64,000 nt of DNA from Patescibacteria group bacterium (GTDB taxonomy: Bacteria; Patescibacteriota; Patescibacteriia; XYB2-FULL-38-15). Each line of letters starts with the position of its first letter. Within the stretch, counting starts at the first letter, position 1. The notes beneath the pieces were generated by a model. It saw only the letters and a list, made by a program, of their open reading frames with translations, was not told the DNA's origin and did not search any database. Shown here piece after piece: positions 35,285 through 60,553 of the stretch. The stretch spans positions 837 through 64,836 of the forward strand of contig JBAZEY010000006.1 of the NCBI GenBank assembly GCA_041653675.1, written 5' to 3'. A program made the translations under genes and the position numbers.

Positions 35285-35349
35285 CCTGAGCCTGTCGAAG
35301 GATAAAATTTAAGTTTCACTGCATCAGTTATGCCTTCGACAAGCTCAGG
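35285..35349. repeat. palindromic repeat family A copy 1 (17-bp inverted arms CCTGAGCyTGTCGAAGG)
   Basis: cctgagcctgtcgaagg-N31-ccttcgacaagctcagg. Related copies are at 46329, 55366 and 60489. Confidence 0.7.
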
Positions 35350-35419
35350 CAATAACTGATTGGTAAATAAATAATTGTTTTAGCAGTTTAGCGCAGATTG
35401 ATTAAAGTGTAAAGTAGCC

Positions 35420-35707
35420 CTATCGCCCCGGTTTTATTACGATCTCTCCGTAATTTCCCTGCTCAATATCTGACACAAATCCGTTAAGGCCCTCCATCTG
35501 TTCATTTAGCTCGGCCATTTCAGCACGAAGTGTTTCCGCGCGGCTTGCGTCAATCGCTGGATCATTTAATTCAGTTTTTATTTCTTCAATTCTTATTCGC
35601 AATCCCTTCGCGTACTCTGTCATATCTCCGCCCAACTGCTCAATTTCTTCTGGAGATAAAACTTTTTCCGGACTCTCGGTTTCCGGACTTTTAAATTTTT
35701 CTGTCAT
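35420..35707 (-). CDS. hypothetical acidic protein (95 aa)
   Basis: ORF with host-like composition, but no motif is recognised. Confidence 0.35.
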   Translation of the reverse strand: MTEKFKSPETESPEKVLSPEEIEQLGGDMTEYAKGLRIRIEEIKTELNDPAIDASRAETLRAEMAELNEQMEGLNGFVSDIEQGNYGEIVIKPGR

Positions 35708-35754
35708 ATATTGTATTTCTTGACCATTTTACACAAATTTGATACTTTTAATAT

Positions 35755-35945
35755 AGCCGTAGGGAGACCTGGCCGAAATCCCTACTTCTCCTTCTGGAGC
35801 TGGAATTTCCGGACCCAGTGATGGAAGGAGCGGACAGGCGAGGGGCTGCCGCGAGAGAGTTGGGATACCTCTTCATAAGGAGCAGACGTGCTTCTTGTGT
35901 TGTACCGAAACCCCGACGTCCCTCTCTCTCGCGGCCTTTTTTTAT
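35755..35945 (+). ncRNA. putative structured ncRNA or GC-rich palindromic element (class unknown)
   Basis: A ~190-nt GC-rich segment in an AT-rich intergenic region. It has a local 7-bp hairpin at the 5' end (GTAGGGA...TCCCTAC) and a long-range stem GGCTGCCGCGAGAGAG/CTCTCTCGCGGCC ending in a T7 run. It has no SD-preceded ORF. Confidence 0.35.
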
Positions 35946-38689
35946 TTTCCGCAACACTTTTTATATTTTTGTCCGCTGCCGCAAGGGCATGGATCATTTC
36001 TCCCAATTTTTTCTCCTTCCGCCGTTCGCGGTTTGGCTTTAATGTCGGCCGGAGCGTTGCGGCTGTCGCCCTCTTTTGCTGGCGCGGATAATTTTACACC
36101 TTGGCGTTGCATCAAAGACGGCGCGGTTTTTGTCTCCAGACCAACTTTATAAACATTATAAACAACTTCTCGATTTATAAAATGCATCAATTCCTGAAAC
36201 ATTCTGTATGTTTCTTTTTTATATTCCACAAGCGGATCGTGCTGGCCATAACCGCGGAGGCCAATGCCAGTGCGCAAATAATCAACCGCGCTCAAGTGAT
36301 CAACCCAAAGCGAATCAATCGCCCGAAGCATCATCGCCCGCTCAATCTGGCGCATAATTTTTTCTCCATCTTGTTTTATTTTTTCCGCCTGCTCGGAAAT
36401 TCTCTTTTCTAAATTTTCATAAGCTCCGCGCGCGAGTTCCATCAAATATTCAATGATGCGAGTCCGAACCGCCGCGTCATGCGCCTTGTCTCCGGCCCAA
36501 CGGCGAAGATCATCCATCTTAATCCGCGCTTCCGGCGCGACCGGAAAAATCGTTCCTACTACTTCGTAAATTTCTTCCAAATTCCAATCCCCTTCCTGCT
36601 CCGAAGCGGTATGAAATAAAACGACTTGCTCAATTTCATCTTCAACCATTTCCAAAACTTTTGTTTTGCTGTCTTCCGCCGCTAAAATGTCGCGGCGTTT
36701 TTTGTAAATAACTTCACGATGTTTATTTAAAACATCATCATAATCAAGCAAATGTTTTCTAATATCAAAGTTGTGTCCTTCTACGCGATGCTGGGCTGTT
36801 TCAAGTGAACGCGAAACCATCCGATTTTCAATCGGCATATCTTCCGGCATATTGAGCCGCGCCATCAAACCCTTCAGCCGGTCCCCGGCAAAAATTCTCA
36901 TCAAATCATCTCCAAGCGAAAGATAAAATTGCGAAGAACCAGGATCGCCCTGGCGTCCAGTGCGGCCGCGCAACTGATTATCAATTCGGCGAGACTCATG
37001 GCGCTCAGTACCAAGAATGTGCAAACCGCCTAATTCCCGAACCTTTTTCGCTTCTTCCGCCGAAGGCGGGTTCCCGCCTAAAATAATGTCTACGCCGCGG
37101 CCAGCCATATTTGTCGCGACCGTCACAGCGCCCTGCCGCCCGGCCTGAGCAATAATTTCTGCTTCTTTTTCATGATGTTTGGCATTTAAAACTTGATGCG
37201 GCACGCCTTCACGCTCGAGCATTTGGCTTAAAATTTCATTTTTTTCAATGGAAATTGTGCCGACCAAAACCGGCTGCCCCTTTTCGTGGCGTTCTTTGAT
37301 TTCTTGAACCACGGCCGTAAATTTTCCCTGCTCTGTTCGATAAATCCTGTCGGGCAGGTCCTTACGAATCATTGGCTTATTTGTCGGAATGGAAATAACT
37401 TCCAAACTATAAATTTTGGAAAACTCTTCCGCCTCGGTAAGCGCGGTACCGGTCATGCCAGCAAGTTTTTTGTAAAGCCTAAATAAATTTTGAAAAGTAA
37501 CTGTGGCCAAAGTTTTTGATTCTTCGCGGACGCGCACGCCTTCTTTTGCTTCAATCGCCTGATGCAAACCTTCGCTGTAGCGCCGGCCTATCATCAGTCG
37601 TCCGGTAAATTCATCCACAATTATTACTTCACCTTCCCCGCCTCGCGTCGGCTCGCCTTCGCGAGTCGAGGCGGGACGGACAACATAATCGCGGTCGCGT
37701 TTAAATAAAGTTTCGGCGCGCAGAGCCTGCTCAATATGATGAACCATGGTAATGCCACCTGAAGTATAAATATTTTCCACGCCGAGCAATTTTTCCATTT
37801 TGGTAATGCCCGCTCCGGTCAAGGTTGCCGCACGCATTTTTTCATCAATATTATAATCTTCATTTTCTTTCAAGCCGCGCACAAGATTGGCAAATTTTGC
37901 GTAAAGATCTCCCGACTCTTCGGCCGGCGCGGAAATAATCAAAGGTGTTCTTGCTTCATCAATTAAAATGCTATCAACTTCATCAATAATCGCATAATTC
38001 AATTCGCGCTGCGCCATGTTTTCCAAACTTGTCACCATGTTGTCGCGCAAATAATCAAAACCAAATTCATTATTCGTGCCATAAAGAATATCCGCGGCAT
38101 AAGCGTCTTTTCTCGGAACTGGTTTTAAAAATTCTTGAACGACTTTGAAACTGGCGGCCTGATCATCTCCCGATGGAGTCTCGTCTTTATATTCTGGATC
38201 ATACAAAAATGCCGCGTCATGTTGGATGCAGCCAACTGATAAACCCAGTGCGTGATAAACCTTCCCCATCCAAACCGCGTCTCTTTTCGCCAAATAATCA
38301 TTCACAGTGACAACATGGACGCCATTACCCGTTAGCGCGTTCAAATATACTGCCAAAGTCGCGGTCAAGGTTTTGCCTTCACCGGTTTTCATCTCGGCAA
38401 TTTGTCCGCGATGCAAAACAACGCCGCCAATTAACTGCGCGTCAAAATGTCGCTGGCCCAAAACGCGCTTGGCAGTTTCCCGGACTACGGCAAAAGCTTC
38501 CGGCAAAATATCGTCCAGTGTCTCGCCTTTCACCAACCGCTCCTTAAATTTTCCCGTCTCGTTTTTTAATTCTTCAAAAGAAAACGACTCGAATTTCGGT
38601 TCGAGTTCGTTTATTTGCCGAACAATCGGCTCTATTTTTTCAATTATTTTTTTATTCGGATCACCGAATATTTTAGTTAACAAACTCAT
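35942..38689 (-). CDS. secA: preprotein translocase ATPase SecA
   Basis: DEAD-like motor with Walker A (GEGKT) and a C-terminal zinc-binding tail [14 protein letters not shown]. Confidence 0.95.
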
Positions 38690-38885
38690 AAATCAAATTA
38701 ATTTAGAAAGAAAACTATGATAATCATCACGTCTCGCCCCGCTTGAAGCCTCAAGATTAACACTAATTAAAATCAAATGGAAGCCGCCAGGCGTTTCCGT
38801 GGAACAGACATTAAATTATTTTATAACTGACTTCGGGCTTTGTGCGGGGTCACCAAAAATCTTTTGAAGTAATGGCATAAAAATT

Positions 38886-38987
38886 TACCCCCATACCAAT
38901 ATTTACAACTCTTCAGTGGGAGATTTTTATCTAAAATTATTTTGTTTATATTTTAAAATTCATTTCACGGATTGGTGTGGGGGTTTA
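38886..38987. repeat. palindromic repeat family B copy (ACCCCCAyACCAAT inverted arms, 67-bp spacer)
   Basis: tacccccataccaat ... attggtgtgggggt. The same core (CCCCCACACCAA) forms the tight palindrome inside murC. Confidence 0.6.
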
Positions 38988-39527
38988 CGGCACAAACACC
39001 GCCGCGGAAATAACAGTCGTCCACAAACCATTTTTATCGGCGATGGCCGACTGGGTAATGTTTGTTGTTTTAACTATTTTTCCACTGACTTTATAAATTT
39101 GTTCGCGCTCGTCCCAAGCCTGGTTGGAATCAAATTCCACGCCGAGTGTTGAAGCAAGCATGGAAGCGGCCAAATCTTCTGCATATTCTCCAGCTTTTTG
39201 ATCTGTTTCGCCAAATGGATGATGTTCTGATAGATATCCGTATTGAGCTGGGTCAGATGGCACGGCCAAACCAATTGACGAAGCTATAAGCCGGTTCGGC
39301 TCATTGGTTGCGTTTCTTGCCATGACGCAAAAAACCACTTCGCCAGCTTTAAGTTCAGTAAGCCCTTGAGTTTTGTTAATTATTTTACAACCCGGCGGAA
39401 AAATACTTGAAACACAGACAATGTTAAATTTTTCAATTCCGGCGTCTCGGAGCGCCGCTTCAAAAGACTGCAACATTTCTTTGTCCCGGCCGACTCCTTT
39501 CGTGAAAAAAACTTTACTTGGAACCAT
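38985..39527 (-). CDS. pdaD: pyruvoyl-dependent arginine decarboxylase (archaeal PdaD type)
   Basis: Size ~170-180 aa. The self-cleavage site context [13 protein letters not shown] has an internal Ser-Ser, and overall similarity is to PF01862. Confidence 0.6.
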
Positions 39528-39559
39528 CTCTTTAAAAATTAAAATTATGAATTAATAAA

Positions 39560-39988
39560 TTAAATTCCTTCGTCCCGCTCTCGTTTTCCTTTTATTTCCT
39601 CGTCTTCCGGCCGCACGCCTTTTGCCACGACTGTCATTCTTTTCGCCAGCCGCGCACCGCGTTTTACTTTCGCGTCTTTAGTGCCTTTATAAGATTTGAT
39701 CTGCCTCTCCAATTCTTTTTTCACGAGGACAATCGCTTGGCGCAAATCTTTGTGCGTTTCCTCTGCCCGCAAAATTTTTCCCGGCAAACGAAGATCTGCT
39801 TCGGCAAGATAAACCATTTCTCCGGTTTTATGATGTTTGCTTGTCCGCGCCACTTCTACCCAAACCTCAGCCACGCCGTCGGCATCATAGGTCGGAATAA
39901 ATTTTGCCAAGCCGCCGATTTTTTCATCAACAAAAACATCAATACTTTCAATCGGTTCTAAGTTTGTCCATTTTAAATTAATTTTCAT
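39560..39988 (-). CDS. hpf: ribosome hibernation promoting factor (HPF/RaiA/YfiA family)
   Basis: MKINLKWTNLEPIESI... sigma-54 modulation protein fold with a short Lys-rich C-terminal tail. Confidence 0.75.
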   Translation of the reverse strand: MKINLKWTNLEPIESIDVFVDEKIGGLAKFIPTYDADGVAEVWVEVARTSKHHKTGEMVYLAEADLRLPGKILRAEETHKDLRQAIVLVKKELERQIKSYKGTKDAKVKRGARLAKRMTVVAKGVRPEDEEIKGKRERDEGI

Positions 39989-40050
39989 AAAATAGCAATA
40001 AATTTATATTAAAACATTATAACACTACGGCACTAATTTTCAATCATTCT

Positions 40051-41043
40051 CTAAAATCCCACGTATTCTATTTCTTCCTGCAATTGTATCCCTGTCTCGT
40101 CGCGGACTTTTGTTTTTACTAAACTCGCGAGGGCAATAACATCAGCCGCCGTCGCCCCTCCCGCGTTCACGATAAAATTGGCGTGCTTCTCGGAAATTTT
40201 TGCCCCGCCGATTTGTTTTCCTCTCAGGTCGCACTGAGTTATAAGCCACGCCGCGGGAATTTTCCCTTTCTCTAAATAATCAGCTGGCACATCTTCATGG
40301 GCATGTTCTTTTATTGTTTTTACTATCTCGTCTGTAACTTCCACATTTTTCATAAACGATCCGGCGGAAGGATCCTGTGGAATTTTTCCGTCTCGGGCCG
40401 CGAAAATTTTATCCATTTCCTCTTTTATTTTATTTTTATCTCCCGGAACTAATTTAAAAATAACTTTCAAAACAATTCCACCTTCGCGCTTAAAAATACT
40501 TTCTCTATATCCAAACTTACAATCTTCTTTGCTATAACTTTTCACTTTTAATTTTTCTAAGGCCTCCACTCTTTCTATTGCCTCGCTTGTAGATTTTCCG
40601 TACGCCCCGGCATTTCCTCGTACCGCTCCGCCAACCGTCCCCGGAATTCCCGCTGCCCATTCCAGGCCAGTTAGACTATTCTCCATCGCCACGTTAACAA
40701 TTTCAGCTAATTTCACTCCCGCATCTGATTCAATTTTTGCCATGCCCCGCACCGAGCTTTGCTCTGGTGCGCGGGTACCTTGAACTTCGTATTTAGTATT
40801 TTGTATTTTTACAACTAGTCCATCAAAGCCGACATCAGAAAATAAAACATTACTCCCGCCGCTCAAAACAAAAATTTTCAAACCTAAATCTTTCGCCGCT
40901 TCCGCCGCTTTCACAATTTCCTCGGAACTTTTGGCAACAAAAAAATATCTGGCCAGTCCGCCGATTTTAAAAGTGCAATGGTTGGCGAGCGGTTCATTCT
41001 CCAAAACTCCCTCGCCTAATTTTTCTCTCAATTTATTTATCAT
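40051..41043 (-). CDS. murB: UDP-N-acetylenolpyruvoylglucosamine reductase MurB
   Basis: ENEPLANHCTFKIGG...SGGSNVLF FAD-binding motifs. The start is reassigned to MINKLREKL. The ORF-track N-terminal extension (to 41100) would translate the T-run terminator of the neighbouring GC island. Confidence 0.8.
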   Translation of the reverse strand: MINKLREKLGEGVLENEPLANHCTFKIGGLARYFFVAKSSEEIVKAAEAAKDLGLKIFVLSGGSNVLFSDVGFDGLVVKIQNTKYEVQGTRAPEQSSVRGMAKIESDAGVKLAEIVNVAMENSLTGLEWAAGIPGTVGGAVRGNAGAYGKSTSEAIERVEALEKLKVKSYSKEDCKFGYRESIFKREGGIVLKVIFKLVPGDKNKIKEEMDKIFAARDGKIPQDPSAGSFMKNVEVTDEIVKTIKEHAHEDVPADYLEKGKIPAAWLITQCDLRGKQIGGAKISEKHANFIVNAGGATAADVIALASLVKTKVRDETGIQLQEEIEYVGF

Positions 41044-41052
41044 AACATCAAC

Positions 41053-41100
41053 AAGTTTAGCAGAAATTGAATACAAAGACAAGAATAAAAAAGCCCGCAC
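41053..41100 (-). terminator. intrinsic terminator of GC island b gene (GCCCGCA...TGCGGGC + T6)
   Basis: On the minus strand, GCCCGCAttggtcaattccggttcgtcggagtttggctggTGCGGGC is followed by TTTTTTATT. Confidence 0.45.
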
Positions 41101-41143
41101 CAGCCAAACTCCGACGAACCGGAATTGACCAATGCGGGCATCA

Positions 41144-41602
41144 TCACGAAGCTACGCGATGCAGTGCCTCCGCAAGAGTTGCGGGACGGTCTTCGCCCTC
41201 CCACTCGTGGATAACGAACTCACGCAGCCACTTGCCTCCGAAGTCGGCCGTATAATCATACGGTCCGCCGCCGAAGCGAGGACCTCGCTTGTATCCAAGG
41301 ATGCGGTCGTAGACCGCCTGTCCTGCCGCCTCCCCCTTCCGGCAAAACTCATCGAACTTCGCTTGATCCGCAGAAACTTGGATCAACGCCGCCTTGTGCT
41401 CATCTTCACCGCGCCCATCCAAGTCGTACCAACAGAGAAGAATGTGCTGACCCGGAGCGACCGTCACCCGGAAGTAACAGTCGCCATGCGACTTCCGCGT
41501 TGGACATTCGACCAGCACCTTCGCCCCGTCGGTTTCCAGACGCCCGTAGTAACCGGAGGGCGAATCGTACTCGGAAAAGTAGAAAGAACAAACCCCAGCC
41601 AT
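41144..41602 (-). CDS. hypothetical protein (152 aa) in GC-rich island b
   Basis: SD AAAGGGAGGG lies before the ATG. GC is high, and no motif is recognised. Confidence 0.5.
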   Translation of the reverse strand: MAGVCSFYFSEYDSPSGYYGRLETDGAKVLVECPTRKSHGDCYFRVTVAPGQHILLCWYDLDGRGEDEHKAALIQVSADQAKFDEFCRKGEAAGQAVYDRILGYKRGPRFGGGPYDYTADFGGKWLREFVIHEWEGEDRPATLAEALHRVAS

Positions 41603-41771: not shown

Positions 41772-42542
41772 ATGGATAAATCTTGTCAAAAAATAGAATC
41801 TGACGATCCGCTGGCCGAGAAGAAATATTCGCCGGTTAAAGGGATTGTCCGCAAATATTCTGACCGGGTGATCTTTTGTCCGACCTACGCCTGCCCCTCG
41901 CACTGCGATTTTTGTTTTAGAAAAAATTTGGTTGACGGAAAAAACGGCGAGCTTAGTGAAAGCGAAATGTCCGCGGCAATTGATTATATTAAAAAAAATA
42001 AAACCATCCGCGAAGTGATTTTGTCCGGCGGCGATCCATTATTTTTGAGTGAAAAAACTTTGTCGGATATTTTAAAAAAACTCCGCGTGATTCCGCATAT
42101 CAAACTTTTGCGCGTCCACACCCGGATTCCGGTTACGTTTCCAGGACGTGTCACAAAAAAACTTGTGGCCATTTTTAAAAACGCCGCGCCGATTTGGATT
42201 GTCGTTCACATCAATCATCCAAGAGAAATAACGCCGCAATTTAAAAAAGCTGTCACGGAATTAAGAATAGTAGGCATTCCCCTTCTCTCCCAATCGGTTT
42301 TACTCCGCAACGTAAACGACAATGCGGAAACTTTAAAAAAATTATTTTACGGACTCGTGGAACTTGGCGTGAAGCCGTATTATTTACATCAATGCGATCC
42401 GGCGCGCGGCACAAAAAAATATTGGGTTAACATAAAAAAAGGTAAAAAAATAATGCGCCAATTGCGCAAAGAAATTTCCGGAATTTGTCTTCCGACTTAT
42501 GTCCAAGACTCGCCGCACCGCGGAAAAAATCCCTTATTTTAA
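41772..42542 (+). CDS. KamA-family radical SAM protein (lysine 2,3-aminomutase-like, short form)
   Basis: CPSHCDFCFR matches CxxxCxxC radical-SAM cluster motif. It is preceded by a TGtATAAT extended -10. Confidence 0.6.
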   Translation: MDKSCQKIESDDPLAEKKYSPVKGIVRKYSDRVIFCPTYACPSHCDFCFRKNLVDGKNGELSESEMSAAIDYIKKNKTIREVILSGGDPLFLSEKTLSDILKKLRVIPHIKLLRVHTRIPVTFPGRVTKKLVAIFKNAAPIWIVVHINHPREITPQFKKAVTELRIVGIPLLSQSVLLRNVNDNAETLKKLFYGLVELGVKPYYLHQCDPARGTKKYWVNIKKGKKIMRQLRKEISGICLPTYVQDSPHRGKNPLF

Positions 42543-43997
42543 TTTTTCTAACAATAATTCTCCCACTCTCCAAACATCGCCCGCGCCCATGGTTATCACA
42601 ACATCGCCGCTTTTCACTTCTTTAGCTAAAAATTCCGCGGCTTCAGAAATTGTCGGAATATAGAGTGCATCATTGCCCTCTTTTTTTATTGCTTCTACCA
42701 AATCGCGGGAACTTACTCCGCCCGCCACTTCACGCGCCGAACCATAAATATCAATGACAATTATTTTATCTGCCCCGCCAAACGATTTAGAAAAATCTTT
42801 GAGCAACGCTTTTGTTCTTGTAAAAGTGTGCGGATGAAAAACACACCAAATCCGACGGTCTGGATATTTTTGCCGCGCCGCTTCTAGCGTCACGCGAATT
42901 TCCGTCGGATGATGGCCGTAGTCATCAATCACTAAAACTCCGCCAACTTCGCCTTTTATTTCAAACCGCCGCACCGCACCGGAAAATTTTTCTAACGCCT
43001 CGCGGATTTTTTCTAAATCAAAACCTAACTCTTTAGCCGTGGCAATTACCGCCAAGGCGTTGGCCACATTATGATTACCGAGTAACTGAATTTTAAAAAC
43101 CCCGCGCGACTCGCCTTTTTCAAAAACTTCAAATTCTACACCCCCACACCAAAAATTTTGGTGTGGGGGCATGTTCCCGCCATTTTTCTGAATAATATTT
43201 TTCGCCTGCCTCGCCGGCTCGCCTCGCTGAAGCTTGGGCGAAGCGGGTAGGCGGGCCTGCCAATCGCCGGCCGTCAATCCATAGGAAATTATTTTACACT
43301 TTGCCGACTTAGAAATTTCTAAAACATTTTTGTCGTCCGCGCACGCTACCAAAAACCCGTCTGTTGGAATTTTTGCCACAAACTTTCGGAAAGCATCAAT
43401 ATAATCTTCCGGCGTTTTGAAAAAATCAGGGTGATCATATTCCGCGCTTGTTAAAACTATCGCCCGCGGATCAAAATACAAAAACTTATTTTGGTATTCG
43501 TCGGCTTCAATAACGACATGTTCGCCACGACCAGCCCGAGCATTCCCGCCAAGTTGCGGTACAGCCGAACCAACAATCACTGTCGGGTCCGCACCTAATT
43601 CCTGCAAGACAAATCCTAACATTGCTGTTGTCGTAGTTTTTCCGTGTGTGCCAGAAACGGCAATTCCAAAACCTTCTTTCAAAATTTCGCCGAGCACTTC
43701 GGGATAACTCAAAATCGTAACCCCACTCTTCCGCGCCGCCGCCAATTCGGGATTTTCGTCAGTATAGGCCGTGGAATAAATTACCAAGTCCGGTTTTTCT
43801 TTTTCCAAATTCACCACGTCAAAACCCTCATAAAATTTTATTCCGCTTTTTTCCAAAACCTCATCAGTAAAAAACTTCTCATGCGTGTCCGAGCCCGTAA
43901 CTTCCGCCCCGCGCAATTTCAAAACCTGAGCAATGGCTGTCATACCCACGCCCTTGATCCCGATCATATAAATTTTCTTCGCGGTCTTTAAATCCAT
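42534..43997 (-). CDS. murC: UDP-N-acetylmuramate--L-alanine ligase MurC (with in-frame palindromic insertion)
   Basis: IGIKGVGMTAIA, GTHGKTTTT (P-loop) and DDYGHHPTEI motifs. It has ~35 extra residues (RLPASPKLQRGEPARQAKNIIQKNGGNMPPHQNFWCGG) relative to typical MurC. Confidence 0.85.
   Translation of the reverse strand: MDLKTAKKIYMIGIKGVGMTAIAQVLKLRGAEVTGSDTHEKFFTDEVLEKSGIKFYEGFDVVNLEKEKPDLVIYSTAYTDENPELAAARKSGVTILSYPEVLGEILKEGFGIAVSGTHGKTTTTAMLGFVLQELGADPTVIVGSAVPQLGGNARAGRGEHVVIEADEYQNKFLYFDPRAIVLTSAEYDHPDFFKTPEDYIDAFRKFVAKIPTDGFLVACADDKNVLEISKSAKCKIISYGLTAGDWQARLPASPKLQRGEPARQAKNIIQKNGGNMPPHQNFWCGGVEFEVFEKGESRGVFKIQLLGNHNVANALAVIATAKELGFDLEKIREALEKFSGAVRRFEIKGEVGGVLVIDDYGHHPTEIRVTLEAARQKYPDRRIWCVFHPHTFTRTKALLKDFSKSFGGADKIIVIDIYGSAREVAGGVSSRDLVEAIKKEGNDALYIPTISEAAEFLAKEVKSGDVVITMGAGDVWRVGELLLEKLK
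43141..43169. repeat. perfect 29-bp palindrome of repeat family B inside the murC ORF
   Basis: cccccacaccaaaaattttggtgtggggg, followed by a ~90-bp GC-rich stretch (43170-43265). Confidence 0.8.
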
Positions 43998-44015
43998 ATT
44001 TGAATTTATATTCTA

Positions 44016-46328: not shown

Positions 46329-46374
46329 CCCTGAGCGAGCGTTAGTGAGTCGAAGGGCCTTCGACAGACTCAGG
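46329..46374. repeat. palindromic repeat family A copy 2, at the left edge of GC island c
   Basis: ccctgagcgagcgttagtgagtcgaaggg / ccttcgacagactcagg. Confidence 0.65.
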
Positions 46375-46464
46375 CCATAAACTTTACCCGCCTTTCTGGC
46401 GGGTTTTTGAAATAAAAAAAGCGAGATCCAGTGATCTCGCAGACTCGTGTTGCCGGAACATGGA

Positions 46465-47094
46465 CTAGCTTGTCCGAGCGGCCTTAGGCGGCGGTTCATG
46501 CGCGTAGCAGTTGGTGCCGCAGAAAGGACACAGTGTAGCTTCTTCGGACGGCTGATCCTTCTGACCCCCGGACCTGGTCTCGTACGCCACGTAGCCGCAC
46601 TCGCAGACCAAGGTGTACTTGTCCAGGAAATCCTGCCCGAGACCGACGTCTTCGGAGTAGCACTCCGCTTCCTCTCCGCACTTCGGACATTTGGGCTTGG
46701 GCTTGGACTTCAACTCCACCTTCTTTTCTTCGGCCATGGTTTCCTCCTTCGTCTGCTCCTCGCAAGGCAAGAGGCCAGCCCGCCCCGCCATCGCAAGGAA
46801 ATTTATCATCTCCTGACAAACAGAACCGCAATATGGTCCAACTCGGCCGTTCTCATCGTAAGCGCCGAGTTCTTCACGAAGACGATGCACATCCTGCTGT
46901 GCGGCGTCCAAGAAGGCCGCCTCTCTCGCCGGCTCCCGCCGCGCCTCGCACATGTACACGTCAAGGCGTGCAATTGAGATGTAAAGGTACAGTGCCACAA
47001 CGGCGTCAATGTTTGGTACCTGGATCGTCTCTCTAACCTTGGTGCCGCAACTTAGAAATGCAGCCGCCAAGGCAACCATGAGGATTTTTTTCAT
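46465..47094 (-). CDS. Cys-rich putative lipoprotein (209 aa) with a Y-C-G-x-V-C-Q-E-M domain, GC island c
   Basis: Signal peptide plus lipobox-like FLSC. SD GAAGGAGG and a TTGACT-N17-TATATA promoter are present. Cys pairs CPKCG/CECG/CPFCG resemble a zinc ribbon. Confidence 0.6.
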   Translation of the reverse strand: MKKILMVALAAAFLSCGTKVRETIQVPNIDAVVALYLYISIARLDVYMCEARREPAREAAFLDAAQQDVHRLREELGAYDENGRVGPYCGSVCQEMINFLAMAGRAGLLPCEEQTKEETMAEEKKVELKSKPKPKCPKCGEEAECYSEDVGLGQDFLDKYTLVCECGYVAYETRSGGQKDQPSEEATLCPFCGTNCYAHEPPPKAARTS

Positions 47095-47209: not shown

Positions 47210-47731
47210 TCACGGCCCGCAAAAGAGGCCGTTTGCCCTCGCCTCCAAAAGAAACTTCGTCATCTCCTGGCAGACCGGACCGCAGTAGCAATCGGTCCGG
47301 CCGCGTGCGCGGTAGACGTCGAATTCCTGGCCCAGGCGGTCCACATCGCGCTCGGCGAAGTTACGAATCGCCTGACGGGCGCTCTCCTCCGCCATCGCCG
47401 CCTCGCAGATGCCGACTTCCATACGCTGAGTTTCCAGACTGAGATACTGCCCATGTGTTCCGCCGAGCGTCGGCTCGCAGGCGACTACCTCGACCGTGAC
47501 CGGATCGGTCGGCTCTGGCAGACTTCCTCCGCAGCCGACCAAAATGAGCAGAAGAATCCCGGCCAACGTGCTGGATCCGCCGCCGAAGGCCCAAGCATGT
47601 TCGCTCGGGTCCCAAACGCGCCACGGAACCTTGAGGTAATCGTTGTCGTTCAACAGCCCGCCGATCACCGCCGCGCCGCAGAGCAAAAAGAGAATTCCCA
47701 AGAAAACCGCCGTACTTCCACAGGATTCCAT
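47210..47731 (-). CDS. Cys-rich membrane-anchored/secreted protein, paralogue of 46465..47094 (shares the ~70-aa CEA...YCGxVCQEM...GL.C domain)
   Basis: Start reassigned to MESCGST, which is preceded by SD GAAGGAGGAGG. The conserved block ...VDRLGQEFDVYRARGRTDCYCGPVCQEMTKFLLEA... aligns with ...VHRLREELGAYDENGRVGPYCGSVCQEMINFLAMA... Confidence 0.6.
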   Translation of the reverse strand: MESCGSTAVFLGILFLLCGAAVIGGLLNDNDYLKVPWRVWDPSEHAWAFGGGSSTLAGILLLILVGCGGSLPEPTDPVTVEVVACEPTLGGTHGQYLSLETQRMEVGICEAAMAEESARQAIRNFAERDVDRLGQEFDVYRARGRTDCYCGPVCQEMTKFLLEARANGLFCGP

Positions 47732-47858
47732 TGTCCTCCTCCTTCTTGCCTCAATCGCCAATTTTAGGCGAATATAAAATTATCCAACATTTTTTGCTTT
47801 TTGTCAAGATTGATGATAAAATGAAACTACTTTTAAAAATATTTTAATTTAAAAACCC

Positions 47859-53205: not shown

Positions 53206-53211
53206 AAAATA

Positions 53212-54200: not shown

Positions 54201-54275
54201 AATCTTCCCTTGAGTATTAAAAAATTAACATTCAAATATTAAACCATCTATCCCAAAAATTGTCAACTTTTAAAC

Positions 54276-54845
54276 TTATCTAATACTCTTAGCTAGCTCC
54301 CTATCAACTGCCCCAATAAAACTTCTAAATCTTTCCAATTCCGGATCGTCCTGAGCTTTTTTCAAATTCTGTCTTATTTCTTCTTGCCTTCCCGCGACAT
54401 CGCCGATGGCATCATCAATATTGCCAATCTCTTTTAAAATAGCCTGAACTTTTTTCATGTCACCTTTATCTTTTGCCGTTTCCAATTGTTTCAAAAACCG
54501 CGCGCTTTCTTTATTAAGTTTATCAACCTTCGGTTTCGCGGCGGCGATCGCTCGACGTAAATCCCCGGCAATCTGCGCGACCGCCTGCTCTTTTTCATCT
54601 ATAAGTTTTTCAAAAAATTCTCGGGCTGGCGAGAGGTGTCCATTTTTTAAAGAGTCAATAATCCCATCTAAATAATCAATTCTTTGCTGCCTTATTTCTT
54701 TGCTTTGTTCATCAAATACTCCAAAATTTTGAGCGCGACGCAACTCATGCTGGAGAAAATTTATCATTTCTTCTTTTTCCTTAAAAAAATCTCGCTCCTC
54801 AATATTTCTTTCCCCCTCCACTTTTGACATATCAATCTCGCGCAT
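54276..54845 (-). CDS. hypothetical coiled-coil protein
   Basis: Charged, helical 189-aa ORF. Confidence 0.4.
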   Translation of the reverse strand: MREIDMSKVEGERNIEERDFFKEKEEMINFLQHELRRAQNFGVFDEQSKEIRQQRIDYLDGIIDSLKNGHLSPAREFFEKLIDEKEQAVAQIAGDLRRAIAAAKPKVDKLNKESARFLKQLETAKDKGDMKKVQAILKEIGNIDDAIGDVAGRQEEIRQNLKKAQDDPELERFRSFIGAVDRELAKSIR

Positions 54846-54851
54846 ATCTTT

Positions 54852-55292
54852 TTAAATTTTAATATCAACTTTATCCCCTACTTTTATCCCATAATTTTCG
54901 GCAAATCCAGCGTTAACTTCCAAAACATAATTTGCTGGTTCTTTCGGCGTATAGGTTGATAAAAATTCCGCGGCCACGACCGGCAGATTCGGCGCGATGT
55001 CAACCACCACATCATTTTTAATCCAAATAATATCAATAGAAAATTCCATATCTTTCATCCAAAACGCCGGCTGGCCCGGAGTGGCAAACACAAAAAGCAT
55101 GCCATGATTTTCATCCAAACTTTTACGATTACTCAAACCTTTTGACATTTCCGCGGCGTCATCGGCAATCTCCACTTTAACTTTTGCATTATCAATAATT
55201 ACGGAACCATGTTCTTGCGCATATTGGCCTGCTTTTAAAAATCCTGCCGCTGCCAAAATTACAATAAAAATGACTGAGTAAAAACGCTCCAT
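54852..55292 (-). CDS. DUF192 (COG1430) domain protein with signal anchor
   Basis: GMLFVF...FWMKDM...DIIWI motif set of DUF192. The start is reassigned to MERFYSV, because the ORF-track extension overlaps the inverted repeat at 55366-55452. Confidence 0.6.
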   Translation of the reverse strand: MERFYSVIFIVILAAAGFLKAGQYAQEHGSVIIDNAKVKVEIADDAAEMSKGLSNRKSLDENHGMLFVFATPGQPAFWMKDMEFSIDIIWIKNDVVVDIAPNLPVVAAEFLSTYTPKEPANYVLEVNAGFAENYGIKVGDKVDIKI

Positions 55293-55365
55293 ATTTTTAA
55301 AATTAGTATATTTTCTTCTCTTTATAATACCGCAAATTTTTTCTGGTGGCAAGCTAAAATAAAAA

Positions 55366-55452
55366 CCCTGGAGTGAGTGAATAGTCCTCGGATGTCCAGA
55401 CAAATAGAGAGAGATTTATTTGCTGAACGAAGATTATTCACTCGCTTCAGGG
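55366..55452. repeat. 18-bp inverted repeat (CCCTGrAGyGAGTGAATA) related to family A, at the left edge of GC island d
   Basis: ccctggagtgagtgaata-N51-tattcactcgcttcaggg. Confidence 0.55.
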
Positions 55453-55659
55453 TTCAAACATTTTTTGAGACCGCCACTTTTGTGATGTTCTCGAAAAATG
55501 TGGGGAACGAATGATGTGTAGTCACTCGTTCCCCGTGTGTTCGGTTTGTCTAGGCCGAAACCTGAGGGCTACTGCCTCCCTTGGACTCACCACTACGCAG
55601 GTGACGCGTTCCATCGCGGGCGGCGAGCGTTGACCTTGCGGTCAAGCGATAGCGGCTAT

Positions 55660-55839
55660 CTATCTCACGCCTACCTCCTCCTCTTCACCGAGCAGGAACT
55701 GGACGAACCGGTCCAGCTGCGGTTCATACCGCTGCATGAATCGGACCGTCGCCCGCGGTGCGATCCGGTCGGCGATTCTGACCACGATGACCGCGGAGAC
55801 AAGAATCGCCGTGCTGGCGACCTCCCGTACCACCTTCAC
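55660..55839 (-). CDS. small hydrophobic protein (59 aa, GTG start) in GC island d
   Basis: SD GAAGGGAGGAAG lies 4 nt before the GTG. The sequence has one TM-like segment (STAILVSAVIVV). Confidence 0.35.
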   Translation of the reverse strand: MKVVREVASTAILVSAVIVVRIADRIAPRATVRFMQRYEPQLDRFVQFLLGEEEEVGVR

Positions 55840-56077
55840 AATCTTCCTCCCTTCTAGCCGCCAAGGACCAGCAAAGAGGCGACAAAAGCGAAGAACAAAC
55901 CGAGCCAGAACACGTGGCCTTCTCCGGCTCCCTCCATCTCGCCGACCACCATAAGCCGGCGACGCTCGAACTTTTTGACTCCTTTCATGATGACGTAGAC
56001 GTCCGCGCCTACCACCAAAATTCCCAGAATCACCCTGGCCGTGGACAAATTTTCTTGCCTCCTCTTGGTCGGATGAA

Positions 56078-56227
56078 CTAGGAGCAATCCTCGCCGTCGT
56101 CGCCGTCGCAGGCGTCGACCACATCATCGCATCCCGCGTCCGCCTCGCACGGCGGAGAGAGATCGATGAACGTGTTGCTGCAACCGAGCGCGAACATCAC
56201 GAACAGCACCATGAACATCTTTTTCAT
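56078..56227 (-). CDS. truncated paralogue (49 aa) of the Cys/Asp-rich lipoproteins
   Basis: MKKMFMVLFVMFALGCSNTFIDLSPPCEADAGCDD... has the same signal, lipobox and first Cys-motif as the two large paralogues. It is preceded by the third copy of the leader repeat. Confidence 0.4.
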   Translation of the reverse strand: MKKMFMVLFVMFALGCSNTFIDLSPPCEADAGCDDVVDACDGDDGEDCS

Positions 56228-56371
56228 CTCGTTTCTTTCCCTTCTTTTGCCTCCGCCAAAGGCGGAAAAATTTATGAAATGAACTTTCCTCTCTTCGAGT
56301 TCACCTGTTTACTGTTCGAGCGGAGCGTTAGCGAAGTCGAGAACTTCTCGACTCACTTCGTTCGCTCGAAG

Positions 56372-56545
56372 AATAACAGATGCCCTCGAAAGAAGGCGGA
56401 ACACATTTTTTAGGTGGGTTCCGCTAAGCTCGTATTTTTTCTTGCTGTCACCTTGCGGTGATTTAGGAAAATTTACGAGCCACCGTCCGAAGGACTCGGA
56501 CGATTTCCGGCATACTTTTGGAAGCCGGCTTATTTTGGAAGGTGC
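56372..56545 (-). repeat. leader repeat copy 3 (distal ~175 bp, near-identical)
   Basis: Matches 57727-57900 and 59469-59640 almost base for base. Confidence 0.85.
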
Positions 56546-56547
56546 TA

Positions 56548-57627
56548 CTACGGGCAGTCCTCGTCGACCAGTCCGTCGCAGTTGTCGTCGAGGCCGTTGC
56601 CACACGTGTCGATGGAACCCGGAATGGACCAGATGGTTCCGGGTGGCGACGAATCGCAGGCCAGCTGGAACATCTCACCAGGCGCGTTGCAGGTGATGAC
56701 GCCGAACTCGGTGCAAAGACCTTCGTCGGAGAAGATGACGCAGGTACGACCGAGATCCTCTCGGTAGTCCTCGTCCGTTTCCCCATCGCAGTCGTTGTCG
56801 ATCTCGTCGCAGAGTTCCTGGGCGTCCGGATTGATAGCCGCGTCGCTATCGTCGCAGTCTTCCGCATTGGTAACGTACCCAGGAGGCATATCCTCGGTTG
56901 GACAGTGTGACGAGGTAGCGGTGGGGGTGTCGAATCCGAAGCCGTCGCCGTCTCGATCAAAGTAGATCGGAAAGCGATCGATGGCATCCGCGTCCGTCTC
57001 GCCGTCGCAGTCGTTGTCGAGGCCGTCGCAGATCTCGCCAACGCCGGGATGGACAGCCGGATTGTGATCGTCGCAGTCGTAGTACTCACCCGGCGAAGAA
57101 CCACAGAGCTGATGACCATCGACGTCATCATCACGTCCGACAAGCAAACAGTGATTCATCACACAACGGGAGATGATGCACTCACTGTCGCGAAAACCGC
57201 AGTCATCGGAAGTGACACACTCTGGCGGCGCGCAGGCGGGATCATCGGACGGAACGTGGCGACAGATGCCGCCAACCTCGCAGAGGTCGACCGTGCAGTC
57301 GTCGCCGTCGTCGCAGTCCGCACTCGTCTCACATTCGGTAGTCGGGAGACACACGCACATGTCGCCGGAACAAACGCCGGTTGACATGCCTTCTGCCTGG
57401 CACTCGAAAACGCAATCGGTCGGCACGCAGTCGGACGGCGGCTCGCAGGCCGGATTGTCGGAGGGAACCATGACGCAGGTGCGGTCAATGCCGCAGATGT
57501 CCACCGTGCAGGGGTCGCCGTCGGCGCAGTCCGCGTCCGAAACGCACTCCTGACTCAGATCGAGGAACGTGTTGTTGCAACCGATCGCGAACAGAACCAC
57601 GGACAGAACCATCAACGTATTCTTCAT
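56548..57627 (-). CDS. secreted Cys/Asp-rich lipoprotein with MopE/TSP3-like DxDxDGxxDC metal(Ca)-binding repeats
   Basis: Start reassigned to MKNTLMVLSVVLFAIGC (SD AAGGAAGGAAAG). It has repeats CDGLDNDCDGETD, CDEIDNDCDGETDED, CGNGLDDNCDGLVDEDC and ~14% Cys. The ORF-track N-terminus (MFRLLSRV...) is the upstream leader read in frame. Confidence 0.65.
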   Translation of the reverse strand: MKNTLMVLSVVLFAIGCNNTFLDLSQECVSDADCADGDPCTVDICGIDRTCVMVPSDNPACEPPSDCVPTDCVFECQAEGMSTGVCSGDMCVCLPTTECETSADCDDGDDCTVDLCEVGGICRHVPSDDPACAPPECVTSDDCGFRDSECIISRCVMNHCLLVGRDDDVDGHQLCGSSPGEYYDCDDHNPAVHPGVGEICDGLDNDCDGETDADAIDRFPIYFDRDGDGFGFDTPTATSSHCPTEDMPPGYVTNAEDCDDSDAAINPDAQELCDEIDNDCDGETDEDYREDLGRTCVIFSDEGLCTEFGVITCNAPGEMFQLACDSSPPGTIWSIPGSIDTCGNGLDDNCDGLVDEDCP

Positions 57628-57900
57628 CTTCTTCTCTCTTTCCTTCCTTGTTGTAAAGAACTTTGTCCCGGACACGCGAAACATCGCGGCCGAGAAACTT
57701 TCCTCTCTTCGAATTTGCCACGCAACGCGTGGTACCCTCGAAAGAAGGCGGAACACATTTTTTAGGTGGGTTCCGCTAAGCTCGTATTTTTTCTTGCTGT
57801 CACCTTGCGGTGATTTAGGAAAATTTACGAGCCACCGTCCGAAGGACTCGGACGATTTCCGGCATACTTTTGGAAGCCGGCTTGTTTTTGGAAGGAACTA
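57565..57900 (-). repeat. leader repeat copy 1 (~335 bp, identical to 59307..59640), comprising the first codons plus 5' UTR/promoter
   Basis: An exact duplicate covering the signal-peptide codons, SD and ~270 bp upstream with several hairpins (TCACC-GCAA-GGTGA, CCACGC-GTT-GCGTGG, TCCGA-GTCCT-TCGGA). Confidence 0.85.
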
Positions 57901-59370
57901 CTCGGCGATCACGAGCTTCGTGGAGGCGATCATGGGGAGACCCGACAGGAAACAGATCTCATGGCCGACGTCAATGTCGTCCGCGCTCATGATCCCGAAC
58001 TGGAAGATCTCTCCCAATTCGGGATGGTCGGCTCCGAACCCGCTCAGAGAAAGCTCGACGTACGAGATTTCGACTTCCGGCGGCACCGCGATGTTTTCGA
58101 AGACAATCTGATCGCCGGGACTCCCTTCTCCACTGGGTACGATCTTCTCCTTCCGGATCGAAACCCATTCGCCCGAGAACGGAACCCTCCCATGCAGTGT
58201 CAGCCACGCATCCAAGCTGGCATCACCCTGGAGAACCGTGAAGGCAATCCGAGGGATCACGCCTGTTTCAATCTGAACCATGAAGGCGAACTTCGCCACC
58301 GAAACCTCGTAAGTGCTGCTGTCCATCGGTGCGCACCAAGTGTCCTCGGCACACTCGCTCGGTACCACCTGTCCGTACGTAACCCAGTTGACCCACGGAA
58401 ACACGGGCGGACCACTGATGAAGAGCGAGCTGCAGAAATCCGCGGGGTAACGTGGTTCAGTGACGGTTGAAGAACAGGAATGGAAAGGATGGCTGGTGCA
58501 CGCGGGAGCTGGTGGGCAAACGGAATCTTCGTCCGTCTCGCCGTCGCAGTCGTCGTCCGCGCTGTTGCAGACCTCGGTAGTCGGGATGCAGGCAGGCCCA
58601 CAGTCCTCGTCGACCGCCGTGTCGCAATTGTCATCTCGACCGTTGCCGCAGACCTCGTCGGCGCCGGGATGAACATCCGGATCGTGATCGTCGCAATCGT
58701 AGCGTTCGCCTTCCGGCAGACCGCCGCAGAGCGACCGACCGTCGCCATCGTCATCACGTTCGAAAGCGAAGCACGAATTCGCCAAGCAGCGGAAGACGAG
58801 ACACTCGCCGTCGAAGCGAGCGCAATCGGCATCCGTGCGGCACTCGGGTGGTGTCTCACAGGCCGGATGACCGGCGCAACCAGAGTCGGCACAGTCGGCA
58901 CGACCGTCGCGATCGTTGTCTGCGCCATCCGTACACTCGCCGGGCTCGTCACCCTCGTAGTCGTCGACTTCCACATCCGCATCAGCGTCCGCATCGGCAT
59001 CGACGTCCGCGTCAGCATCCGAAGGCGTCTCGCAGGCCGGATGACCGGCGCAACCAGAGTCGGCGCAGTCGAACTGACCGTCACGGTCATTGTCCACGCC
59101 ATCCGTGCATTCTCCGGGCTCGTCGCCCTCGTAGTCGTCGGTACTTGCATCCGCGTCGGCGTCAGCATCGGCATCCCGGTCGTCCACCGGCTCGCAAGCC
59201 GGGTTGTCGGAGGGAACCATGACGCAGGTGCGGTCAATGCCGCAGATGTCCACCGTGCAGGGGTCGCCGTCGGCGCAATCCGTGTCCGACTGGCACTCGC
59301 TGTCGAGGAACGTGTTGTTGCAACCGATCGCGAACAGAACCACGGACAGAACCATCAACGTATTCTTCAT
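57898..59370 (-). CDS. secreted Cys/Asp-rich lipoprotein paralogue (~490 aa) with duplicated GECTDGxDNDRDGxxDCADSGCAGHPACETP modules and a C-terminal ~170-aa beta-rich domain
   Basis: Same signal, lipobox and first 25 residues as 56548..57627. It has poly-(DA) linkers, an internal exact module duplication and SD AAGGAAGGAAAG. Confidence 0.65.
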   Translation of the reverse strand: MKNTLMVLSVVLFAIGCNNTFLDSECQSDTDCADGDPCTVDICGIDRTCVMVPSDNPACEPVDDRDADADADADASTDDYEGDEPGECTDGVDNDRDGQFDCADSGCAGHPACETPSDADADVDADADADADVEVDDYEGDEPGECTDGADNDRDGRADCADSGCAGHPACETPPECRTDADCARFDGECLVFRCLANSCFAFERDDDGDGRSLCGGLPEGERYDCDDHDPDVHPGADEVCGNGRDDNCDTAVDEDCGPACIPTTEVCNSADDDCDGETDEDSVCPPAPACTSHPFHSCSSTVTEPRYPADFCSSLFISGPPVFPWVNWVTYGQVVPSECAEDTWCAPMDSSTYEVSVAKFAFMVQIETGVIPRIAFTVLQGDASLDAWLTLHGRVPFSGEWVSIRKEKIVPSGEGSPGDQIVFENIAVPPEVEISYVELSLSGFGADHPELGEIFQFGIMSADDIDVGHEICFLSGLPMIASTKLVIAE

Positions 59371-59640
59371 CTTCTTCTCTCTTTCCTTCCTTGTTGTAAA
59401 GAACTTTGTCCCGGACACGCGAAACATCGCGGCCGAGAAACTTTCCTCTCTTCGAATTTGCCACGCAACGCGTGGTACCCTCGAAAGAAGGCGGAACACA
59501 TTTTTTAGGTGGGTTCCGCTAAGCTCGTATTTTTTCTTGCTGTCACCTTGCGGTGATTTAGGAAAATTTACGAGCCACCGTCCGAAGGACTCGGACGATT
59601 TCCGGCATACTTTTGGAAGCCGGCTTGTTTTTGGAAGGGA
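59307..59640 (-). repeat. leader repeat copy 2
   Basis: Identical to 57565-57900. Confidence 0.85.
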
Positions 59641-60123
59641 CTAGAGCGTGATGACGCCGTCGTGACCGTACATCATGACCATCGCCATTGCGCCGTTCTT
59701 CATCACGAGGCCTCCGAGGCCTCGCACCAGCTCCCGCGCTTCCCTTCCGGTTGCGTCATCGGGAGTGGTGGTGCAAAGAGCGACATCGTCGTAGGGATAG
59801 CCGAGCTCGTCGCGGAGCCGCTGCCGCGCTTCGTCCTCCGAGGAGGACGAAGCGATGATGTGTCTCGCGGCGACTTCGATCTCGGCGTCGGTCATGTCGG
59901 GGTAGGACTTGCACTGCACCACGGCGGCTCCGACCAAACCGATGAGCTTGGTGTGCTGGGCCGCACGAATCACGGAGTTGGCGAGCGCCAAGGCCTTGCA
60001 AGGGTTGCGTTCACCCACGAAGGACATGGAGGGGTTGTGACCCCTCGAACGCTGCCATGCAGCGTGCGCCACGACCTGCTCGGCAGAGCCTTCGGGCCAG
60101 CCGAGAACACCAGACTTCTGCAT
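59641..60123 (-). CDS. hypothetical protein (160 aa) in GC island d
   Basis: SD GAAGGGAAGGAAGAG lies before the ATG. GC is high, and no motif is recognised with confidence. Confidence 0.5.
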   Translation of the reverse strand: MQKSGVLGWPEGSAEQVVAHAAWQRSRGHNPSMSFVGERNPCKALALANSVIRAAQHTKLIGLVGAAVVQCKSYPDMTDAEIEVAARHIIASSSSEDEARQRLRDELGYPYDDVALCTTTPDDATGREARELVRGLGGLVMKNGAMAMVMMYGHDGVITL

Positions 60124-60488
60124 CTCTTCCTTCCCTTCTTTCGTCCCGCGATTCTGCGGGAAGTCAACGAACTCTTGTTCCCTCTCCGCACCATGCGGTT
60201 TAGGAAATCTTTCGGACAGAAACTTGCGCTTCTGCCCTGGCTTGAATCGGCGAATCTTCGTCGCCTCAAGTCATTTGGACAAACAAAAACGGGCGGAGAG
60301 AATCCGCCCGAAATTAAATTATTTGTACAAATAATTTAGGGTGGTTTTCCCGCCACTTTGGCGAGTCTCTCTCAAACCGACCTATTTCATTGTCAACAAA
60401 TTAGTATACCATAAAAACAACAATCTGTCAAGAGCCTTTGACAGATTTTAGATGATATTTTGGCTAATTTTAGATAAAATATATTATG

Positions 60489-60553
60489 GCCTGAGCTTGT
60501 CGAAGGCCCCTTTTGATAAACCCTTCGACTTCGCGCTACGCGCTCCGCTCAGG
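60489..60553. repeat. palindromic repeat family A copy 3, at the right edge of GC island d
   Basis: gcctgagcttgtcgaagg ... cccttcgacttcgcgctacgcgctccgctcaggg. Confidence 0.65.

Follow-up and report, generated by a model that had tools for sequence, protein, structure and literature searches.

A small hairpin-forming palindromic repeat, probably of REP/REPIN- or MITE-like kind, in intergenic spacers of a Patescibacteria genome

Introduction

Why should a short palindrome recur beside GC-rich gene clusters in the genome of a candidate-phylum bacterium? We address this question for a 64,000-nucleotide stretch of a Patescibacteria group bacterium (contig JBAZEY010000006.1, positions 837 to 64,836 of the forward strand), hereafter the window, in whose own numbering all coordinates are given. 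An initial annotation had described a palindromic repeat, family A, as four copies of 17–18-bp inverted arms around 30–50-bp variable centres, three of them sitting precisely at the junctions of GC-rich islands and the first 400 bp from a GC-rich segment downstream of secA. It had offered three readings: elements resembling miniature inverted-repeat transposable elements (MITEs), recombination sites used in island insertion, or terminators resembling repetitive extragenic palindromes (REPs). We find three copies and conclude, with a probability of roughly 0.7, that they are a small non-autonomous, hairpin-forming dispersed repeat of REP/REPIN- or MITE-like kind, REPINs being hairpin-forming REP doublets.

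Results

Three copies of family A in the window

The arm CCTGAGCYTGTCGAAGG, counted with up to three mismatches, occurs four times in the window against 0.14 expected. A composite 22-base pattern, CCTGAGNNNGTCGAAGG-N(1-31)-CCTTCGAC, finds only three loci (35285-35349, 46349-46374 and 60490-60529) and none in shuffled sequence. The copies are as follows, numbered as in the initial annotation.

35285-35349, no strand assigned: family-A copy 1, with perfect 17-nt arms CCTGAGCCTGTCGAAGG and CCTTCGACAAGCTCAGG and a 31-nt centre
46330-46374, plus strand: family-A copy 2, with long arm CCTGAGC-GAGCGTTAGTGA-GTCGAAGG, then G, then short arm CCTTCGACAGACTCAGG
60490-60553, minus strand (the sense of WecA): family-A copy 4, with long arm CCCTGAGC-GGAGCGCGTAGCGCGAA-GTCGAAGGG, a 15-nt centre and short arm CCTTCGACAAGCTCAGG

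All three are intergenic and have a common core, CCTGAG-NNN-GTCGAAGG ... CCTTCGAC-NNN-CTCAGG, an agreement far beyond what chance would give; within the 64 kb, the two halves of the motif, GTCGAAGG and CCTTCGAC, are confined to these loci. Each is a strong predicted hairpin (z -2.3 to -8.5 for RNA folding against shuffles), with -40.6 kcal/mol and z -8.45 for copy 1, whose palindrome reaches 35270-35364. The unit is a pair of inverted 17-nt arms whose core is conserved in sequence, around a centre that is free to vary, and an insertion point inside the arm, between CCTGAGC and GTCGAAGG, is tolerated. Copy 2 carries 13 extra nt at this point of its long arm and has a centre of ~1–3 nt, while the 18 extra nt in the long arm of copy 4 form a GCGC-GUA-GCGC mini-hairpin, the predicted fold of the whole copy being a three-way junction. 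The anatomy first described therefore holds for copy 1, and not for copies 2 and 4 with their shorter centres and arm insertions. The window copies are flanked by TTATnn and nnATAA, and copy 4 is unchanged in a second metagenome contig from the same population (JGI metagenome 3300014205).

Membership was scored with a covariance model; the 40 elements behind it came from other organisms and phyla, none of them from the window. Copy 1 reached 55 bits (E ~1e-12), copy 4 ~15 bits and copy 2 ~14 bits. The palindrome at 55366-55452, previously listed as a further, divergent copy, is no member of the family: the core is absent, the hairpin to which it belongs (55364-55454) scores 11 bits (E ~0.9), level with generic hairpins, and it is conserved at the orthologous position in relatives.

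The copies as recent insertions into transcribed spacers

Three neighbouring signals place the copies with respect to transcription. Loci and contigs outside the window carry L numbers.

46386-46409, plus strand: intrinsic-terminator-like hairpin of Elp3 (ACCCGCC-TTTCT-GGCGGGT, then TTTTT), from fold and alignment, kept in all relatives
60403-60447, minus strand: block in which a terminator-like hairpin (60447-60422) overlaps a strong promoter-like site (TTGACA-17-TATACT, 11/12 matches), kept in L134
35385-35413, minus strand: promoter-like site upstream of secD (TTTACA-17-TAAACT), in a block kept in L128 and L131

The secD promoter-like site has copy 1 on its downstream side, in the 5' untranslated region (UTR) that leads toward the start codon at 35253. 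The insertion point of copy 2 is 10 nt past the Elp3 stop codon and 11 nt ahead of the Elp3 terminator, and copy 4 begins 12 nt past the stop codon of the WecA/MraY-like gene; two of the three copies thus stand between a stop codon and the terminator-like hairpin of the same gene, and the third in a 5' UTR.

Relatives were found through homologs of Elp3 and WecA, and four are syntenic with the window (L128/L129, L130/L133, L131/L134 and L132). Their Elp3 proteins are 86–90% identical to that of the window and their DNA ~80–86% identical; the closest protein matches carry the names Patescibacteria, Uhrbacteria or Falkowbacteria. In these four, the orthologous spacers of all three copies hold no family-A element. 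Downstream of Elp3, L128, L129 and L130 present an empty site, the stop codon running directly into the same terminator (ACCCGCC...GGCGGGTTTTT). Downstream of WecA, where copy 4 lies in the window between the stop codon and the terminator/promoter block kept in L134, L132, L133 and L134 have other palindromes and no family-A copy. The secD leader of L128 is short from the conserved promoter-like block to the start codon, and that of the window is ~100 nt longer, copy 1 included. Because the syntenic relatives are without family-A copies at the orthologous spacers, the three copies are, as judged from these alignments, recent and lineage-specific insertions into transcribed spacers. This comparison, which the initial annotation had proposed, accords with its MITE- or REP-like option, that is, with dispersed palindromes present or absent between close relatives.

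Location directly after stop codons and very stable folds would also be expected of a selected cis-acting RNA hairpin, be it a 3'-end stabiliser, a terminator adjunct or a small-RNA precursor, rather than of a selfish insertion. Two further observations lean the same way: the copy 1 mismatch is G–U, and not C–A, on the transcribed strand, and there is a sub-threshold match to Rfam family RF02901 (arms GCUGAGCUUGCCGAAGC), so that a related hairpin lies within a family that Rfam classes as small RNA (sRNA). A selected RNA function is nonetheless unlikely for the window copies because the close relatives without copies keep their own terminators. Intrinsic-terminator scans call no family-A copy, and no U-tract directly follows the elements; 3' of copy 2 comes CCAUAAAC and then a separate, canonical terminator. 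Moreover, copy 1 occupies a 5' UTR, the long arm points in no consistent direction with respect to transcription (the window compared with L030 and L115), and the element can sit inside a coding gene. We regard a selected RNA hairpin as distinctly improbable.

Since different palindrome families occupy the Elp3 spacer (in L131) and the WecA spacer, stop-codon-to-terminator spacers look like insertion hot-spots. At the spot of copy 2, the Elp3 spacer of L131 (~30 nt) holds the unlike palindrome GTCATTCCCGTGAAAACGGGAATCCAG...CTGGATCCCCGATCAAGTCGGGGATGAC. A second palindrome type, GTCATTCCCG...CGGGAATC, is found in the same spacer of a relative, and family A may belong to a wider group of palindromes that also insert in frame into essential genes. 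A single long arm is shared, at orthologous positions, by L132 and L133, and in L131 a single arm makes a 15-nt in-frame net insertion in murC. Small palindromic elements appear to have entered this essential gene with its frame intact.

Several further palindromes and inserts were seen in the same relatives. Other palindromes occupy the same stop-to-terminator spacers at L131 11582-11647, L132 ~9100-9150, L133 ~9090-9130 and L134 ~5300-5420; the types in these spacers are GTCATTCCCG...CGGGAATCCAG and TTTCCCCTCC...GGAGGGGAT. In murC of L131, the single in-frame family-A arm at 8141-8157 (encoding GPSTSSGN) is accompanied by a second, 7-amino-acid insert (PASSADK; alignment column 226-232). The window murC (42534-43997, minus strand) has two in-frame insertions that are missing from three relatives: a perfect 14+14 palindrome at 43141-43169, CCCCCACACCAAAA followed by TTTTGGTGTGGGGG, which encodes NMPPHQNFWC, and a 17-amino-acid insert at ~43195-43250 (ARLPASPKLQRGEPARQ). 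At the N terminus of murC in L128, the called open reading frame (ORF) has an upstream extension that runs through a palindrome of the GTCATTCCCGCGAAAGCGGGAATC type (MFLDSRFRGND).

GC-rich segments and the repeat

Copies 2 and 4 lie ~30–150 bp from shifts in GC content, and the adjoining loci are rich in insertions and deletions (indels) among relatives. Such observations could suggest recombination or attachment sites through which GC-rich islands were inserted, and the initial annotation had placed copy 2 at the left edge of one island (c) and family-A copies at both edges of another (d). The junctions prove to be approximate, however: the terminator at 46386-46409 and the block at 60447-60403 intervene.

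'Island c' consists of two paralogous GC-rich genes with Cys-rich, lipoprotein-like products. One of them (47210-47761, minus strand) has an ortholog in every relative, with 40–59% amino-acid identity and a GC content of 0.57–0.60 throughout. The other (46465-47094, minus strand) is an extra paralog and the only window-specific gene of the segment; it is flanked by two conserved terminators, that of Elp3 and that of the next gene. Copy 2 lies across the Elp3 terminator from this gene, and the other border has no copy. 'Island d' comprises genes for three small membrane proteins (also in L130 and L132), two MopE-repeat lipoproteins and a 160-amino-acid ORF. In L128 and L134, MopE-type genes (GC 0.58–0.62) occupy this locus with no family-A copy, and L130 and L132 have no MopE genes. 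The supposed left-hand copy, the 55364-55454 hairpin, is present even in the relatives without MopE genes, while on the right the homology to L134 passes through the promoter block beside copy 4 and stops beyond it.

The reading as island borders or recombination sites is thus unsupported, because conserved terminator/promoter blocks separate the copies from the true indel junctions. In addition, other borders have no copy, relatives hold GC-rich genes without copies, the arms are inverted and not the direct repeats expected of attachment (att) sites, and a Pfam search of the ORFs in the GC-rich regions returned no integrase or recombinase domain. A genomic-island attachment site would show repeats at each exact junction of the acquired segment, with empty sites in relatives that lack the island; family A does not show this. 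Elsewhere in bacteria the element stands at ordinary convergent-gene junctions, the outcome that the initial annotation had itself named as contrary to its proposal. We consider an attachment-site role very improbable indeed. Judged by comparison among relatives, the GC-rich segments are hypervariable, fast-evolving surface-protein loci common to the lineage, and the family-A copies appear neither to delimit nor to mediate these clusters. Two of the three copies do adjoin hypervariable loci, which is nominally unlikely (p ~0.02, a rough estimate), and there may be a loose association of copies with fast-changing spacers. The adjacency fits a readier uptake of insertions by AT-rich, fast-changing spacers.

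The variable loci themselves offered other details. The two MopE-repeat lipoprotein paralogs (56548-57756 and 57898-59499, minus strand) are identical to each other in their N-terminal regions, and the regions upstream of them (57737-57901 and 59480-59643) are duplicates; it is exactly here, at 59572, that a sister metagenome contig breaks. Each relative has different content in the interval between the WecA and DUF192 genes, which is a hypervariable locus of surface proteins. A large non-coding RNA was considered for the GC-rich 55.5–56.5 kb and ruled out, the region encoding the three small membrane proteins kept in L130 and L132.

Distribution across bacteria

We scanned contigs of one genome per species (596 Gb) with the composite pattern; all counts are of the matches listed and are lower bounds. 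At least 120 loci were found against ~2–5 calculated to arise by chance. The second arm, which the pattern does not demand, is complete in 76 of 120 among the matches listed, as a match on both strands. By record title, the loci fall in at least ten phyla: Actinomycetota, Pseudomonadota, Bacteroidota, Chloroflexota, Patescibacteria, Myxococcota, Desulfobacterota, Spirochaetota, Acidobacteriota and Eremiobacterota. Cultured carriers include Agromyces, Agreia, Microlunatus, Plantibacter and Nocardioides among Actinomycetota and Sphingopyxis, Blastomonas, Novosphingobium, Polaromonas, Azohydromonas and Ideonella among Pseudomonadota; metagenome-assembled genomes supply Bacteroidota, Chloroflexota, three Uhrbacteria, Myxococcota, Desulfobacterota, Spirochaetota, Acidobacteriota and Eremiobacterota. 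E. coli has no match to the composite pattern.

In a plasmid collection, matches lie chiefly in large non-mobilisable Sphingobium replicons, at 8–14 places per ~1-Mb replicon and never under an annotated feature; in the two cases inspected, the element stands 50–75 nt past a stop codon at a convergent-gene junction. Only seven viral contigs match, and any association with phages is weak. The gene context of the 120 loci listed was tandem for 32, convergent for 23, divergent for 16 and 'inside ORF' for 36, as assigned by a crude ORF caller that is unreliable in high-GC genomes. The Uhrbacteria locus L022 was considered as an ortholog of copy 1 and ruled out, since the shared sequence around the element is limited to 42 bp and the gene context differs.

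It is possible, though doubtful, that family A is one homologous and still-active palindromic replicator, its 17-nt arm near-invariant over at least ten phyla and from candidate-phylum genomes of 41% GC to actinomycetes of 70% GC. If so, either a widely conserved trans-acting factor reads the exact arm, or a gene-less element has been transferred repeatedly between phyla.

Anatomy of the family

The anatomy was drawn from 99 elements. The arm core is near-invariant, which is partly a result of the search design. Outside it, six positions are Watson–Crick paired in 72–85% of elements, with 3–4 pair types, against 30–41% for shuffled pairings. The outer stems vary by lineage yet remain complementary, examples being CCGTTCGCC... 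in many proteobacteria, CCGTAGCC... in Sphingomonadales, TTTATnnCC... in candidate-phylum genomes, and GTCACC..., CCTCATC... or CCGTTCC... in actinomycetes. Centres range from ~1 to 53 nt, elements can be as short as ~35 bp (L043, L098), and many lineages have elements that are near-perfect palindromes throughout, even in the centre. Several phyla contain the long-arm variant (L030, L048, L088, L103, L108, L115, L120). We also considered each arm as a REP-like mini-hairpin closed by tandem G–A pairs, with the insertion in its apical loop; the folding of single arms, given below, contradicts this.

Some of this anatomy would suit a classical MITE, derived by deletion from an insertion sequence, with the 17–25-bp arms as terminal inverted repeats that a DDE transposase acting in trans binds as double-stranded DNA. 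The arms are conserved in sequence beyond complementarity, with position 8 free on each arm independently, and the outer extension is mirrored at both ends, as for one transposase reading both. The elements are polymorphic for presence, 2-bp flanking repeats are in marginal excess, and the window copies are flanked by TTAT...ATAA. The same elements, however, yielded no target duplication of at least 3 bp, a feature that the initial annotation had proposed to look for: flanking direct repeats of this length show no excess in 90 elements. Nor is there a transposase nearby or an annotated mobile element under any match, and no insertion sequence with family-A termini was found under 131 plasmid or chromid matches or near 127 loci. 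Isolated single arms, insertions within the arm, elements of only ~35 bp and the near-perfect palindromy of whole elements, centre included, likewise sit poorly with a classical MITE, which we judge unlikely.

Database and literature searches

At the gathering threshold, Rfam found only tRNAs in the window and in 18 loci from other phyla. The match to RF02901 (AaHKsRNA41) reached 46.1 bits (E 1.4e-9) against a gathering score of 97 and is hence sub-threshold. A full-text literature search for the 17-mers and the peptides that they would encode returned nothing relevant, and the arm fragments TCGAAGG, CCTTCGA, GCTCAGG and CCTGAGC do not occur in the texts of the REP survey papers searched, PMC3733652 included. 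By eye, none of hammerhead or other ribozyme cores, k-turn or C/D box motifs, tRNA or tmRNA fragments, attC, dif and oriT nic sites fits.

A separate conserved hairpin and other features of the window

The hairpin once counted with family A is a feature in its own right.

55364-55454, plus strand: 91-nt hairpin with 27-nt arms and a conserved apical region, not family A (arm sequences CCCTGGAGTGAGTGAATAG and TATTCACTCGCTTCAGGG)

It stands at the same place in L128, L129, L130, L132, L134 and five metagenome contigs, 3' of the terminator-like site of a small-gene cluster and 5' of a promoter-like site upstream of the DUF192 gene. Eight of its 37 predicted pairs show compensatory changes, G–U pairs are invariant on the plus strand, and the apical sequence GUCCAGNNAAAYAGAGAGAGAUUURUUUGCUGAAC is invariant. 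No Rfam family matches the hairpin; it is a candidate for a small RNA or a regulatory hairpin peculiar to the lineage.

The window encodes SecD, SecA, a bacterial Elp3, GlyA, FolD, DnaB, RecR and a WecA/MraY-like transferase, genes that point to a member of Patescibacteria (candidate phyla radiation). SecD (33196-35253, minus strand) contains an inserted parvulin/rotamase (peptidyl-prolyl isomerase) domain, an architecture found also in L128. Downstream of the TatD gene, at 142-277, a 21-nt inverted repeat (ACCCCGTAGTGAAATTTTGGA and TCCAAAATTCTACTACGGGGT) with a 94-nt centre and a GTAG motif may be another palindromic element. The ~30% GC segment at 5093-9519 encodes a GmrSD-N-domain protein, a D12-class adenine methyltransferase, a 426-amino-acid ORF and an EcoRI-type methyltransferase, and is probably a restriction-modification or defence islet.

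Discussion

The reading of family A as a small dispersed repeat of REP/REPIN- or MITE-like kind carries a proposed mechanism. A factor that recognises the sequence of the arms would produce the copies in trans. As to the route, a tentative proposal to which we give less than even odds is a hairpin or single-strand DNA intermediate, as with REPINs and their associated RAYT transposases (REP-associated tyrosine transposases) or with IS200-type HUH enzymes; this is favoured because there are no target duplications, half-elements exist, bodies are fully palindromic and sites lie beside existing hairpins. Insertion would prefer AT-rich spacers adjoining existing hairpins, and the inserted element would be transcribed within a UTR, as a neutral or mildly stabilising hairpin and not as a required signal.

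Several observations weigh against this account of family A. Terminal inverted repeats read by one transposase would be just as likely to covary in the outer stem, so that this covariation is no proof of a hairpin intermediate, and position 8 of the arm (Y in each arm) does not covary at all (C–G 30, T–A 24, C–A 23, T–G 19). Two-base flanking repeats number 14 against 6 expected in 90 elements, with a control maximum of 15, and a 2-bp target duplication may exist. Single short or long arms folded as DNA do no better than shuffles (z -0.1 to +1.4), which sets them apart from classical REP units. The 64-kb window shows three copies and no more. Within ~4 kb of the 127 loci, no mobilising enzyme was identified and no protein family recurs; no transposase domain, Y1 included, was found by Pfam in the called ORFs of 1–30.7 kb of the window or in those of the GC-rich regions, or by NCBIfam in ten ORFs of 33–61.7 kb. 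Finally, REPIN sequences are reportedly lineage-specific, whereas the family-A arm is conserved across the phyla listed above.

This conservation of the arm over at least ten phyla, with no known mobiliser, is the one unusual property of what is otherwise an ordinary small selfish palindrome. For the window, the palindromes should not be taken for the edges of islands. More broadly, very small palindromic insertions of this sort end up in UTRs and, with the reading frame kept, even inside essential genes such as murC; spurious ORFs arise from them, and searches for islands or regulatory RNAs can be misled. If the arm's conservation reflects a common recognition factor, it would offer a handle on the spread and persistence of gene-less repeats, also in very small candidate-phylum genomes with no evident mobiliser.

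Among known systems, bacterial MITEs such as the Coxiella QMITEs (PMC5896051) are likewise small, non-coding and polymorphic in insertion, with terminal inverted repeats. Family A differs from them in lacking a target-site duplication of at least 3 bp, in being much shorter (35–90 bp) and often fully palindromic, and in having no known parent insertion sequence. RF02901 (Aggregatibacter sRNA 41) has consensus hairpin arms GCUGAGCUUGCCGAAGC and GGUUCGGCAAGCUCAGC with the same CUGAGCUUGYCGAAG core, although the remainder of its 187-nt model has no convincing match; its classification by Rfam suggests that a related hairpin is transcribed in Aggregatibacter.

The likeness to REPs and REPINs (Bertels & Rainey 2011, PMC3116915) is broader. 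Both are short, extragenic and non-autonomous, with two inverted conserved units around a variable spacer and a predicted long hairpin; both occur as doublets and singlets, are polymorphic for presence and leave no target duplication. A REP unit, however, is an imperfect palindrome of 20–40 nt, whereas a single family-A arm is not itself a stem-loop. Nor has family A a constant GTAG or CGTC tag, its ends being CCGTTCG, CCGTAG, GTCAC or CCTCAT according to lineage, with CCGTAG confined to the subfamily of Sphingomonadales. Di Nocera et al. (2013, PMC3733652) describe intragenic repeat copies and families without a dedicated transposase. The GTAG- and CGTC-tagged stem-loop repeats, intragenic REPs and Rickettsia palindromic elements resemble family A as dispersed stem-loops, some without a transposase of their own and some with copies that lie within genes, a parallel to murC in L131 and in the window; they differ in belonging to another sequence family, and their tags are not conserved in family A. 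Although membership in either group is not demonstrable, family A works most like the REP/REPIN elements and the tagged stem-loop repeats.

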